Both the position numbers and the translations under genes were made by a program. From Escherichia coli (GTDB taxonomy: Bacteria; Pseudomonadota; Gammaproteobacteria; Enterobacterales; Enterobacteriaceae), in assembly GCF_003991155.1 (NCBI RefSeq), contig NZ_CP031293.1: a stretch of 64,000 bases of DNA, one strand, 5' to 3'. The notes beneath the pieces were generated by a model. That model saw nothing but the letters and a program-made list of their open reading frames with translations. It was not told where the DNA came from and made no database searches. This document shows, in pieces, positions 17,012 to 58,946 of this stretch. The number at the start of each line of letters is the position of its first letter. The first letter of the stretch is position 1.

Positions 17012-17694
17012 TCTGCGGCATCTCCATAAACAGAAGGCAAGTTAAGTTCTCTTGCACCCTGCGCGCTATTTATCCATGCATACATTTCAGCGTTGCTGTG
17101 AATTGCCAGTCGACGCATCGCACTGTTTTTTTGGGCGCTGATAGTTTTATTACTTTTCTTAAGCAATGAAGCTATCTGGTTGATGCCCCATCCTTTACCT
17201 AATAGCCGCAGCACTTTGCGCTCTGAAAGAGTGAGAATGACGGAGCGATAGCTAAAATCATGAGTTTCAGTCATTGCCGGGGAGGTCAGCATGGCGCTGA
17301 TACGCTCTGCGTGCGTATTGCCAGAACGCACGGTCTTAACCAGATTCTCAATGGGTTCAACATCAGACAATAATGTCGCCGTAGGGCACATGAGAAGTTC
17401 TACCGCCTGGGAATACCAGGAGCGTGACACCATGAAAACCCAGTGAATTTCCCGATATTGTGAAATTAAAGAATAATAATGTTCACAAACAAAACGTGGA
17501 TCTTCACTTTCACCGGCTAAATCAGCAATGACTAATCCGGAACGACGTAATTGTAATAAAGTAAGGTCCTCCGCAGAGGCGCTGGATATTATTTCATATT
17601 CAGGGAAGTGAGTCCTCATGACCTCTTTTAACCCTGCTTGCATGACAGGTATTTTACTGATAACAATTCCATTTTTGCAGCATCCTGGCAACAT
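16969..17694 (-). CDS. yjjQ: LuxR-family transcriptional regulator YjjQ
   Basis: 241 aa; C-terminal LuxR HTH ([43 protein letters not shown]); AT-rich upstream region. Confidence 0.85.
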
Positions 17695-18312
17695 ATTTCC
17701 TCCACATCCACTGTCTAAAAATCATGATGGTCTATTCAGGATATTCATTCCTTAAATGTTTCCAGCAAATTAATAGATTAAGCGAATAAATTATCCTTAG
17801 CATTCACTTTCATATCAGCATACTCCTGCTGCACAACAACTCCACTGCATGTGTCAGAAGGTTAGCATCAAATGATAACCTAGTGAAATAGCCTGGAGAC
17901 ATTTAAAATATCTACATTAAGTTGTTAGAAATACTTAATGAAAAACAGAATTCTCATTCACTTAATTTATAATTAACTGATATCCCTTCCCGCAGAATGC
18001 AAAATCACACAATCAATATTTATTCAATAAAATCTGATAGTTTTAACTTGTTAAAATTAAAAAACGCGCCCAGTTATCTTTTATCCTGATTCGTAAGGGC
18101 TAAACAATAAATTCATTATAGTGATAATATTCATGCGATAATTTGTTTGCGGCGAGAGATAATTCGCTTTTTAACACCGAGCTTCTCCCGATAACCAGGA
18201 TTAATCAGCGCAATTTTGATCTTAACCTGCCGCAAAACAACCGCGCTTCATGATACAAATGGATTCTCATAATTTGAACAATACGCAGCGCGTCTATGAC
18301 AAAGGGCGAGTT

Positions 18313-19083
18313 ATGCAAACTGAGCAACAGCGAGCCGTGACACGGCTTTGTATCCAGTGTGGATTATTTCTTTTGCAACATGGTGCGGAAAGCGCGTTGG
18401 TTGATGAGCTTTCCTCACGACTGGGTCGGGCGTTGGGAATGGACAGCGTCGAAAGTTCTATCTCTTCGAACGCCATAGTGCTGACAACTATTAAAGATGG
18501 GCAATGCCTGACATCTACACGTAAAAATCACGATCGCGGCATTAATATGCATGTGGTGACTGAAGTCCAGCACATTGTGATTCTGGCGGAGCACCATCTG
18601 CTGGATTACAAAGGCGTAGAGAAACGATTTAGCCAAATTCAGCCATTACGTTACCCAAGATGGCTGGTAGCCTTAATGGTTGGCCTTTCCTGCGCCTGTT
18701 TCTGTAAACTCAATAAAGGTGGCTGGGATGGTGCCGTCATCACCTTCTTTGCCAGTACGGCCGCGATGTATATCCGCCAGCTACTGGCACAACGTCATCT
18801 TCATCCACAGATCAACTTTTGCCTCACCGCTTTCGCCGCCACCACCATTTCCGGATTGCTTTTGCAACTTCCCACTTTCAGCAATACCCCCACCATTGCG
18901 ATGGCCGCCAGCGTTCTGCTGCTGGTGCCGGGCTTTCCGTTGATAAATGCCGTCGCCGATATGTTTAAAGGCCACATCAATACCGGACTGGCACGCTGGG
19001 CGATCGCCAGTCTGCTGACACTGGCTACCTGTGTCGGCGTAGTAATGGCACTGACGATTTGGGGGCTACGCGGATGGGTGTGA
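18313..19083 (+). CDS. yjjP: Inner-membrane protein YjjP (ThrE/DUF1212 family, putative succinate exporter subunit)
   Basis: ORF 18250..19083; start uncertain (internal Met at 18313 gives about 256 aa); multiple TM segments; overlaps yjjB. Confidence 0.8.
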
Positions 19084-56146: not shown

Positions 56147-57058
56147 ATGGATGGCTGTGGTGCGGTTTTGCATAATATTGAAACAAAATGGCTTTATGAT
56201 TTTCTGACCCTGGAAAAATGCCGCAACTTTTCCCAGGCGGCAGTCAGTCGCAACGTCTCGCAACCGGCATTCAGCCGCCGCATCCGTGCACTGGAACAGG
56301 CGATTGGCGTTGAATTGTTTAACCGCCAGGTGACGCCGCTGCAACTCTCGGAACAAGGGAAAATCTTTCATTCGCAGATCCGCCATCTGTTGCAACAGTT
56401 AGAAAGCAATCTGGCAGAGCTGCGTGGCGGCAGCGATTACGCGCAACGTAAAATCAAGATAGCCGCTGCACACTCTCTTTCCCTCGGTCTGTTACCGTCC
56501 ATTATCAGCCAGATGCCGCCGCTCTTTACCTGGGCGATTGAAGCCATTGATGTCGATGAAGCGGTCGATAAACTGCGTGAAGGGCAAAGTGACTGTATTT
56601 TTTCCTTTCACGACGAAGATTTGCTGGAAGCACCATTTGACCACATTCGCTTATTTGAATCTCAATTGTTCCCCGTCTGCGCCAGTGACGAACACGGAGA
56701 AGCACTTTTTAACCTCGCGCAGCCACACTTTCCGTTACTGAATTACAGCCGCAACTCCTACATGGGGCGATTGATTAATCGCACCCTGACGCGCCACAGT
56801 GAGTTAAGTTTCAGCACCTTTTTTGTCTCTTCGATGAGCGAGCTTTTAAAGCAGGTTGCCCTCGACGGCTGTGGAATTGCCTGGTTGCCGGAGTATGCCA
56901 TCCAACAAGAAATTCGCAGCGGGAAGCTCGTTGTGCTTAATCGGGACGAACTAGTGATCCCGATTCAGGCTTACGCATACAGGATGAACACCCGTATGAA
57001 TCCCGTTGCCGAACGCTTCTGGCGTGAACTGCGCGAGCTGGAGATTGTGCTTAGCTGA
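56147..57058 (+). CDS. hypT: LysR-type transcriptional regulator HypT (hypochlorite-responsive)
   Basis: 303 aa; N-terminal LysR HTH ([29 protein letters not shown]). Confidence 0.85.
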
Positions 57059-57443
57059 CATTCTCCAGCGTCGCACTACGCCAACCGCCATTATCCCAGA
57101 CCAGATCAAACGTTAGCGGTTCATCGTCGTGGTACAGCATTATCTCAAGGCAGATCGCCAGCGTGTGGCAGTACGCTTCTTTCAAATTGACCTGCAACGC
57201 CGCAATCCGTGGCTCATGAAATAACAGTGCAGAACGCAGCTGACGGCAATACCAGCCCTGAAGATGTTTGTCGCTCTGGTTATGCAGTTGCCACTCGGGC
57301 ATGCCTGAAACAAGTAATGACGGTAATGCCGAATGAGGAGAATTAAAAAGTGTGAGGAGATCGCTGCATACCGATTTACGCAGCGATGACGTTTTATTGC
57401 CTGAAATTTCAGGTAAAACAGCCTGAAGTGATTGGCGCATCAT
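57051..57443 (-). CDS. iraD: Anti-adaptor protein IraD (RssB inhibitor, DNA-damage induced)
   Basis: ORF 57051..57452; internal start MMRQSL gives about 130 aa; 3' end overlaps hypT. Confidence 0.8.
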
Positions 57444-58115
57444 TTTGCGCACTCCTGACGTTTAGCAACATATGCGGCTTGCCCTGAACACCGGGCACCA
57501 CTGTATTGATGCTCATTTTCCATAGCCATTCCCTTTTGTTCATTACATCCATGTCAGTCTGAGACAGGCCTGAATCCTGTCAGCAAAGTATAAAACCTTA
57601 CTTGCCTATGAATATCTACTGACTTTTCAGGAAAAAAGTCATGATTTGATAAAAATCATCAAACTCAAAAAAAAACTGCTAGTATATTCTGAATATTCCG
57701 AATAGTTATGTAGATGAAAATACTTGTCACCGCCGCTACTTAATTCCGGTGGGAAATTATTTATTTCCGCATAATCAGCCATGTATTATTTGAAACAATT
57801 AGTTTGTAAATAATATAAATTGATAACATATCAAATACATCAAAAATACCATTCACAGGCATTATTAATATAGACATCAATATAGCAACATCAAATTCCA
57901 ATTAGTAATAAGATATGCTTTTTAATTGCATGAAAATAATTTCAAATGAGCGTTTTTTGATACTTTAGAGTGTTTCCTACCCTTTAATATCACCGTGTAG
58001 AGTTGATATCACTACAACAGAAACATGCATGTCATTTGTTTACTTCTCTTTTTACTACAGAAAAATTTATCTATTTTTCTAAACATCAGTGAAATACTCC
58101 TAAAAGGTAACTATT

Positions 58116-58946
58116 ATGTCTATGCCATTAAGCAATGCCCTTCAGAGCCAAATTATTACAGATAATCACTTCCTTCATCATCCAAAAGTCGACAGTGAGT
58201 TAACACGTCGATATGAATATGCACGCCTGGATACGGAAAATATCTATCTTCTGCCTCTTGCTCGTGGCAATAACCATAATTACGATGGAAAAAGCGTTGT
58301 CGAAATTAGAAAACTTGATATTAGTAAAGAGCCCTGGCCATTTAATTATGTGACAGAAACATGCAGAGAATCCGATGGTATTACAACAACAGGACGTATG
58401 CTCTATCGAAACTTGAAAATCACCACAGTTTTAGACGAAATATATGGTGGTATATGTAAAAAGGCGCATGCTGCCACAGAGTTAGCAGAAGGATTAAGGC
58501 TAAATTTATTTATGAAGAGCCCTTCCTATCCTGTTGAGGACTATACAGTTCATGAAATAACATTAGGCCCTGGTTGCAATGTTCCAGGTTACGCCGGAAC
58601 CACGATAGGATATATTTCAACCCTTCCAGCTTCTCAGGCAAAAAGATGGACCAATGAGCAGCCAAGGATTGATATCTATATTGATCAGATAATGACGGTA
58701 ACAGGGGTAGCAAATTCTTCCGGATTCGCCCTTGCCGCATTACTTAATGCTAATATTGAGTTGGGTAATGACCCAATAATTGGTATAGAAGCCTATCCCG
58801 GTACCGCGGAGATCCATGCAAAAATGGGATATAAAGTTATCCCGGGTGATGAAAATGCACCACTCAAACGTATGACTCTGCAACCGTCATCTCTTCCAGA
58901 ACTGTTTGAATTAAAAAATGGTGAATGGAATTATATTGGTAAATAA
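58116..58946 (+). CDS. yjiC: Uncharacterised protein YjiC
   Basis: 276-aa ORF with low-GC AT-rich codon usage, preceded by a long AT-rich intergenic region. Confidence 0.7.
   Translation: MSMPLSNALQSQIITDNHFLHHPKVDSELTRRYEYARLDTENIYLLPLARGNNHNYDGKSVVEIRKLDISKEPWPFNYVTETCRESDGITTTGRMLYRNLKITTVLDEIYGGICKKAHAATELAEGLRLNLFMKSPSYPVEDYTVHEITLGPGCNVPGYAGTTIGYISTLPASQAKRWTNEQPRIDIYIDQIMTVTGVANSSGFALAALLNANIELGNDPIIGIEAYPGTAEIHAKMGYKVIPGDENAPLKRMTLQPSSLPELFELKNGEWNYIGK

Follow-up and report, generated by a model that had tools for sequence, protein, structure and literature searches.

The question raised by this locus of Escherichia coli is what the long AT-rich stretch between iraD and yjiC holds, a stretch which a preliminary description had regarded as an intergenic region with room for multiple promoters, an H-NS binding zone, or an unannotated small RNA or small protein. 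The window, i.e. the whole 64,000-nucleotide stretch of DNA analysed here, is E. coli DNA, as established from its ORF map and from how identical and near-identical genomes are annotated: strain 2016C-3878 is 100% identical to it, and K-12 is 97.4% identical over 2.1 kb. The region is the iraD upstream region of K-12 itself, already known and ordinary, and its earlier reading is essentially right. The additions made here are modest and comprise a description of the haplotypes at this locus, the finding that idlP coupling is conserved across the genus, and a mismatch between the ytiC start codon and the transcription start site (TSS) of promoter P1.

Position and composition of the iraD–yjiC spacer and its counterpart in K-12

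The local gene order is iadA, hypT (+), iraD (−), yjiC (+), uxuR, uxuB (−), and the spacer is located directly upstream of the iraD orthologue, between hypT–iraD and yjiC–uxuR. The genes iraD and yjiC are divergent, and the gap between them is a divergent promoter region; around the unit on the iraD strand, the order reads hypT, iraD, idlP, ytiD, ytiC, yjiC, uxuR. The genes concerned and the distal part of the gap are as follows.

57051–57443, minus strand: iraD coding sequence, anti-adaptor IraD, 130 aa, ATG at 57443 (ORF and RefSeq annotation)
57440–57523, minus strand: idlP (ORF27), 27-aa iraD leader peptide (annotation and ORF)
57639–57782, minus strand: ytiD (ORF47), 47 aa, translated from P1 transcripts
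57761–57862, minus strand: ytiC, 33 aa as annotated in K-12 (b4720)
57895–58115, no strand: distal AT-rich part of the gap, ~27% GC
58116–58946, plus strand: yjiC coding sequence, DUF2686, 276 aa, 40% GC (ORF and annotation)

IraD scores 296.6 bits against the NCBIfam equivalog NF010726, where the cut-off is 198, and YjiC matches Pfam family PF10887 (E=2e-154). IraD also matches the phage baseplate wedge gp25/T6SS TssE family (PF04965, E=4e-14), and the anti-adaptor would thus be derived from a phage or T6SS baseplate fold. A 605-bp contig deposited under 'Bacillus coahuilensis m4-4' (NZ_ABFU01000118.1) encodes E. coli idlP, iraD (97% identity for IraD) and the end of hypT, and evidently entered that assembly as a contaminant from E. 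coli.

As the annotated start of iraD is the ATG at 57443, the gap extends from 57444 to 58115 and comprises 672 bp, as in the published accounts, with 32% GC; the preliminary description was correct as to its length and AT-richness, but let it begin at 57453, upstream of an in-frame GTG (57452) which is not the annotated iraD start. The tract as then delimited (57453–58115, 663 bp) has 31.8% GC versus 51.3% for the whole window, only 0.4% of the 663-bp windows in the 64 kb are equally AT-rich, and GC content reaches its lowest value in the 64 kb (29.9%) within the iraD–yjiC gap. Runs of at least five A/T bases, to which attention had also been drawn, number nine in this tract versus 3.9 ± 1.8 in composition-matched shuffles. 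Apart from the gap, the window falls below 37% GC only at 17362–18426, which is yjjP/yjjQ–bglJ according to the annotation of identical genomes. [quoted passage not shown] It is not intergenic in the sense of gene-free, as three small genes, all on the iraD strand, are annotated inside it in RefSeq and in K-12 (idlP, b4722; ytiD, b4721; ytiC, b4720), and its largest part free of annotated genes is ~253 bp long (57863–58115).

K-12 MG1655 contains the same locus in the same order, where ytiC–ytiD–idlP–iraD constitute a transcription unit (b4720–b4722, b4326). The two spacers are identical at 664 of 672 positions (98.8%), and none of the eight SNPs lies in the promoter hexamers, the CsrA sites, idlP or the DnaA box, while one is found in the HusR box (57677) and another in the P1 spacer (57876); at the protein level, YtiD differs at 3 of its 47 residues. 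For the 100%-identical strain, PGAP, unlike the K-12 annotation, enters ytiD as well as ytiC as 'hypothetical protein'. All published K-12 elements are present in the window (the P1 and P2 hexamers and TSSs, CsrA sites BS1–BS4, the idlP–iraD overlap and the DnaA box at −81), and the eight differences spare the key elements, so that the K-12 mechanism is transferable to the window. The K-12 experiments concern the activity of P1 and P2, binding of CsrA, coupling via idlP, H-NS occupancy and the fact that the three ORFs are translated; by virtue of this identity, these findings should hold in the present strain with high confidence.

Promoters, regulators and the iraD leader

The elements upstream of iraD, listed in the direction of iraD transcription, are as follows.

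57860–57894, minus strand: P1, −35 TTGATG at 57889–57894, −10 TATATT at 57867–57872, TSS at 57860 (−417)
57676–57708, minus strand: block AACTATTCGGAATATTCAGAATAT with the HusR box, conserved in the Escherichia alignment
57676–57691, minus strand: HusR (YnfL) box CAGAATATACTAGC(G/A)G, from published HusR genomic SELEX
57606–57663, no strand: conserved block upstream of P2, containing two inverted repeats, with the core TGAYTTTTRTCA at 57642–57663
57580–57592, minus strand: P2, −10 TATACT at 57587–57592, TSS (A) at 57580 (−137)
57575–57577, minus strand: GGA of CsrA site BS1, which works only in P1 transcripts
57546–57555, minus strand: CsrA site BS2 (GGA 57548–57550), within 57519–57555
57527–57533, minus strand: CsrA site BS3 (GGA 57530–57532), overlapping the idlP Shine-Dalgarno (SD) sequence
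57519–57521, minus strand: GGA of CsrA site BS4, overlapping the idlP start codon
57516–57524, plus strand: putative DnaA box TTTTCCATA, at −81 from the iraD ATG
57452–57456, minus strand: iraD SD sequence AGGAG, a locally paired segment, invariant in 8/8 Escherichia alleles

The presence of multiple promoters, which had been proposed from the length of the gap, agrees with the literature, as the iraD TSSs at −417 (P1) and −137 (P2) have been mapped in K-12 and both promoters have been mutated there. P1, a sigma70 promoter, is induced by ppGpp and AZT as well as on reaching late log phase, while P2 is recognized by sigma70 or sigmaS, depends on ppGpp and fires in every growth phase (Sass et al., bioRxiv 10.1101/2021.05.20.444958). 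The −10 hexamers, as set by the mutagenesis primers of that study (an ApaI substitution for P1), have the K-12 letters in the window, and transcription would be expected to start at the same positions in this strain. A consensus promoter scan of the gap gives two overlapping matches at the P1 site, one of which (TTGATG-16-TATATT) consists of the published hexamers; the five promoter-like matches in the gap are no excess over shuffled sequences (6.9 ± 2.8).

Several regulators have been linked to this DNA. The DnaA box at −81 was proposed from genetics and EMSA, in a study which also identifies SspA as a further iraD input (Sass et al., bioRxiv 10.1101/2021.05.20.444958), while a DnaA ChIP-seq study, whose authors question whether iraD is part of the DnaA regulon, saw no DnaA upstream of the gene; direct DnaA control of iraD is thus disputed. 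The HusR box carries an A at its position 15 (57677) in this strain and a G in K-12.

The stop codon TGA of idlP overlaps the ATG of iraD (AAATGATG), and translational coupling of the two has been shown in K-12, as has a hairpin sequestering the iraD SD sequence in the leader (Park et al. 2017, PMC5574718). In the minimum-free-energy fold of the present leader, the iraD SD sequence is paired with a downstream CACUU; taken over its full length, the P2 leader shows no more folding than shuffles (z −0.13), and the SD-sequestering hairpin is thus a local feature only. Four CsrA sites have been described in the iraD leader, with positions −78/−77, −90 to −84 and −112 to −103 for BS4, BS3 and BS2, respectively, and CsrA represses iraD only via ORF27, now named idlP (Park et al. 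2017, PMC5574718). The GGA motifs of BS1–BS4 are found at the published positions in the window, where CsrA would be predicted to bind; the TSS of P2 is an A followed by 'ACAGGA', which places the GGA of BS1 3 nt downstream, in accordance with the statement of Park et al. The arrangement resembles other systems combining leader-peptide coupling with CsrA in having the same short overlapping upstream ORF, a sequestered SD sequence of the main gene, and GGA motifs covering the start codon of the upstream ORF and its SD sequence. The usual mode of CsrA is to occlude the SD sequence of the regulated gene itself, whereas in iraD it acts only through the upstream ORF (Park et al., PMC5574718); this difference is already published and does not make the present locus a new variant.

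The gap is very probably a divergent iraD/yjiC control region, the iraD side of which is a two-promoter, CsrA-controlled and translationally coupled leader embedded in H-NS-bound AT-rich DNA. According to the mechanism proposed, the iraD-proximal two thirds of the gap would act as a long multi-input regulatory leader, where P1 (TSS 57860) would fire in late log phase and after replication stress to give a 417-nt leader bearing ytiC and ytiD, while P2 (TSS 57580) would supply basal transcription with a 137-nt leader. The inputs at the DNA level would be ppGpp and SspA, possibly DnaA-ATP and possibly HusR. In both P1 and P2 transcripts the ribosome-binding site of iraD would be hidden in a hairpin, and iraD would be translated mainly by coupling to the 27-codon idlP, the stop codon of which overlaps its start; CsrA bound to the GGA sites over the SD sequence and start codon of idlP would repress both idlP and iraD and destabilise the mRNA. 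The AT-rich DNA from P2 to yjiC would form an H-NS-bound 'promoter island'.

Haplotypes, yjiC and the distal AT-rich DNA

The full arrangement is present in 4881 of 5403 matching E. coli genomes, while yjiC and the distal spacer are missing from the other 522 (~10%). Details of the yjiC-less arrangement come from the examined members of these 522 that retain iraD, namely CNR85I8 and strain 998, which encode a 127-aa IraD with 77% identity, have no yjiC and possess an iraD–uxuR spacer of ~410 bp. In strain 998, the GimA-island genes dhaKL-ptsP adjoin iraD, while in EC17CM2 ibeA/GimA-island genes follow hypT and no iraD is found in the 8-kb stretch fetched. In a genus survey, in which one genome per species was scanned, the arrangement without yjiC recurs in E. 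whittamii, Escherichia sp. E1V33 and two more representatives labelled 'E. coli'. E. albertii has yjiC in the same place, with a spacer of 654 bp and 31% GC; its UxuR is 94.6% identical to that of the window and its YjiC 63.5%.

The divergent haplotype is characterized by an IraD of 127–134 aa with 72–79% identity, a different uxuR terminator and the spacer of ~410 bp, while the flanking hypT and uxuR are 95–99% identical across haplotypes. With IraD, spacer and yjiC diverged between conserved flanks, the iraD-to-yjiC block thus represents a deeply diverged haplotype set. The K-12-type IraD is the outlier, being 72–79% identical to all others, which share 77–94% among themselves; the K-12-type leader is nearest to that of E. 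albertii (82%).

In an eight-way alignment, the proximal ~300 bp are homologous in all alleles, and the conserved elements are the P2 −10 hexamer (TATACT, TATATT or TATCTT across the genus), the GGA motifs of BS2–BS4, idlP, the iraD SD sequence and three blocks upstream of P2. The idlP ORF and its stop/start overlap with iraD are intact in 8/8 Escherichia alleles, while the GGA of BS1 is not conserved in the yjiC-less ones. Only the K-12-type haplotype has the hexamers of P1 and the ORFs ytiC and ytiD; P1 is not conserved in E. albertii and is absent from the yjiC-less alleles. Among eight K-12-type alleles, the 117 bp from P2 to the idlP start (57524–57640) are invariant, and the genes vary as follows.

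iraD: pi 2.3%
yjiC: pi 4.3%; 32 synonymous and 47 non-synonymous variable codons
ytiC: 2 synonymous and 2 non-synonymous variable codons
ytiD: 0 synonymous and 6 non-synonymous variable codons

As judged from these alignments, the P2/leader/idlP core kept across Escherichia is the functional heart of the region, and P1, ytiC, ytiD, yjiC and the AT-rich DNA of the distal part were added to it in a lineage-specific manner. The gene yjiC is unusually polymorphic, and YjiC shares only the above 63.5% with the E. albertii orthologue at the same locus.

The distal part (57895–58115) presumably holds the yjiC promoter and the yjiC SD sequence, and the consensus promoter scan finds nothing convincing for yjiC in it. 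A 15-bp block, AAATGAGCGTTTTTT (57944–57958), is identical in E. coli and E. albertii, in a distal spacer of which otherwise only ~55–60% is alignable. The chance of such an identical run is roughly 3%, and a regulator of yjiC or P1 may bind there.

Among the 78 'promoter islands' catalogued for K-12 is the yjiC/iraD spacer (Panyukov and Ozoline 2013, PMC3661553, Table 1), and H-NS binds it in the ChIP sets of Kahramanoglou and Oshima compiled in that source. Promoter islands are tied there to genes predicted to be foreign, among which yjiC is flagged. The present region shares with them the AT-richness (32% GC versus 51%, the lowest in the 64 kb), the extent of several hundred bp and the adjoining low-GC, predicted-foreign gene; the yjjP/yjjQ–bglJ region of the same window is another example of an H-NS-bound promoter island. 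However, promoter islands are described as almost silent, whereas the iraD spacer has two productive and strongly inducible promoters. The high-affinity H-NS motif TCGATAAATT has a single 9/10 match in the gap (58064–58073), with no local enrichment, and H-NS occupancy thus rests on the published ChIP and the AT content. The H-NS zone suggested in the preliminary description is in this way supported by K-12 ChIP and the promoter-island listing, and would be predicted for the present strain.

The same description had also viewed yjiC as horizontally acquired and silenced, and the strongest rival to a control region throughout the gap is that 57895–58115 and yjiC are acquired, H-NS-silenced DNA with no regulatory role for iraD. 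This is in keeping with the low GC content (27% in the distal part, 40% in yjiC), with the H-NS occupancy and foreign-gene predictions that cover yjiC and the distal DNA in PMC3661553, with the lack of both in ~10% of E. coli and in four further lineages of Escherichia, and with the excess of non-synonymous over synonymous variable codons and the pi of yjiC. However, yjiC occupies the same locus in E. albertii, so that the block may be old and repeatedly lost rather than newly acquired, and its transcript is induced 11-fold by AZT alongside the P1 transcripts, so that yjiC is not simply or permanently silent; furthermore, the active and regulated P1 is located inside the same AT-rich, haplotype-specific DNA. 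The view of yjiC as acquired and silenced thus has partial support, and silenced distal DNA wholly without a role for iraD is rather improbable. The reading of the gap as a divergent control region is retained.

ytiC, ytiD and the inverted repeats

The suspected small protein has support, as all three ORFs of the gap are translated (Park et al. 2017; VanOrsdel et al. 2018), but it is not unannotated, since the ORFs are already entered as b4720–b4722. ORF23 (ytiC) and ORF47 (ytiD) are translated without any effect on iraD expression, and the ORF23 form of ytiC uses the ATG at 57829 as its start codon (Park et al. 2017, PMC5574718), while a 33-aa YtiC has been detected by chromosomal tagging (VanOrsdel 2018). 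AZT RNA-seq gives inductions of 260x for ytiC, 33x for ytiD, 18x for idlP, 14x for iraD and 11x for yjiC, which are LexA-independent and make ytiC the most AZT-induced gene of the K-12 genome (PNAS 2024, PMC11228462).

The gene model of ytiC and the transcript map are in incomplete agreement, because the annotated start codon (57862–57860) begins 2 nt upstream of the P1 TSS at 57860. In addition, the T (minus strand) at 57876 in the window creates an ATG at 57877 and thereby a 38-aa ORF starting inside the P1 spacer, which PGAP calls in several genomes sharing this base. Only the 22-aa ORF23 form (ATG 57829) is wholly inside the P1 transcript. Either the true product is this 22-aa protein, or the mRNA is leaderless, or a promoter exists further upstream.

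That ytiC and ytiD encode functional small proteins of the replication-stress response, rather than incidental leader ORFs, is suggested by the hydrophobic, membrane protein-like character of YtiC, by translation of both as lacZ fusions (Park et al. 2017, PMC5574718), by the tagged 33-aa product and the record AZT induction of ytiC, by both ORFs being open in 8/8 K-12-type alleles sampled, and by the existence of a Pfam family for YtiC (PF23685, matched with E=4.9e-27). Against this, mutation of their start codons leaves iraD expression unchanged (PMC5574718), the ORFs are absent in E. albertii, E. whittamii, other Escherichia lineages and the yjiC-less E. coli alleles, the variable codons of ytiD (0 synonymous, 6 non-synonymous) give no sign of purifying selection, and the annotated start of ytiC precedes the mapped TSS. 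A search for homologues of ytiC and ytiD elsewhere in Escherichia yielded only a 23–26-residue match to the C-terminal part of ytiD, which reflects a conserved DNA block and not an ORF. A function as small proteins is thus unlikely; ytiD has the look of an incidental or very young ORF and not of a conserved protein, and the same probably applies to ytiC.

The inverted repeat quoted in the preliminary description, TGATTTGATAAAAATCATCAAA, is present at 57642–57663, and a perfect 8-bp repeat, TGACTTTT-N6-AAAAGTCA, adjoins it at 57620–57641. Three blocks upstream of P2 (57620–57708) are conserved genus-wide, namely AAAAGTCAGTRGATATTC, the core TGAYTTTTRTCA, in which T..A becomes C..G in the yjiC-less alleles, and AATTATTCGGAATAWTCAGAATAT, which overlaps the HusR genomic-SELEX box. 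We infer that the conserved repeats of 57606–57663 are a regulator-binding site or an RNA hairpin of the P1 transcript. An excess of folding is confined to 57581–57860 (z −4.1 on the minus strand, −4.4 on the plus strand) and is absent from the distal 255 bp (z +0.44); as z is alike on both strands, the excess reflects DNA palindromes rather than strand-specific RNA structure. The alignment of the leader likewise contains almost no compensatory changes, with a double change in only 2 of 33 consensus pairs, and a strand-specific RNA-structure reading of the inverted repeats was rejected; neither the folding of the two strands nor the leader alignment reveals a strand-specific conserved RNA structure. 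In an Rfam scan of the gap with permissive E-values, the best match has E=0.067 and all lie far below the gathering scores; these matches (eukaryotic snoRNA, lncRNA and CRISPR-repeat families) are at chance level. A terminator scan of 57444–58115 finds no terminator-like site on either strand.

The unannotated small RNA that had been considered is accordingly not borne out: an undescribed independent one, such as a short stable ytiC transcript derived from P1 or an antisense transcript, would fit the 280-nt P1–P2 segment folding far better than shuffles and the steep AZT gradient from ytiC through ytiD to idlP, which could mean a short abundant 5′ fragment, but it is highly improbable given the Rfam and terminator results, the equal folding of the opposite strand, the conservation of the ytiC–ytiD segment within one haplotype only, and the alternative explanation of the gradient by a constitutive P2 raising the downstream baseline. 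The gap yields no evidence of an independent small RNA.

Implications for RpoS control

IraD stabilises RpoS, the sigma factor of the general stress response, after DNA damage and on entry into stationary phase, and the iraD spacer brings together the input of starvation via ppGpp and SspA with that of replication stress, of CsrA and of nucleoid silencing, all of which has been published for K-12. The comparison of haplotypes is the only part that could matter beyond this. P1 is the stationary-phase and replication-stress promoter which provides most of the iraD induction, and we tentatively propose, as a possibility somewhat short of probable, that the P1–ytiC–ytiD module is non-ancestral and may have arisen in H-NS-bound AT-rich DNA travelling with yjiC, and that yjiC-less strains may couple RpoS stabilisation differently. 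The comparison predicts lineage-specific control of RpoS, with most E. coli on one side and, on the other, the ~10% minority without yjiC and P1, which includes strains with the ibeA/GimA island. If the yjiC-less strains have only the P2/idlP/CsrA core, the stabilisation of RpoS would be coupled to DNA damage and starvation in a manner unlike that of K-12.
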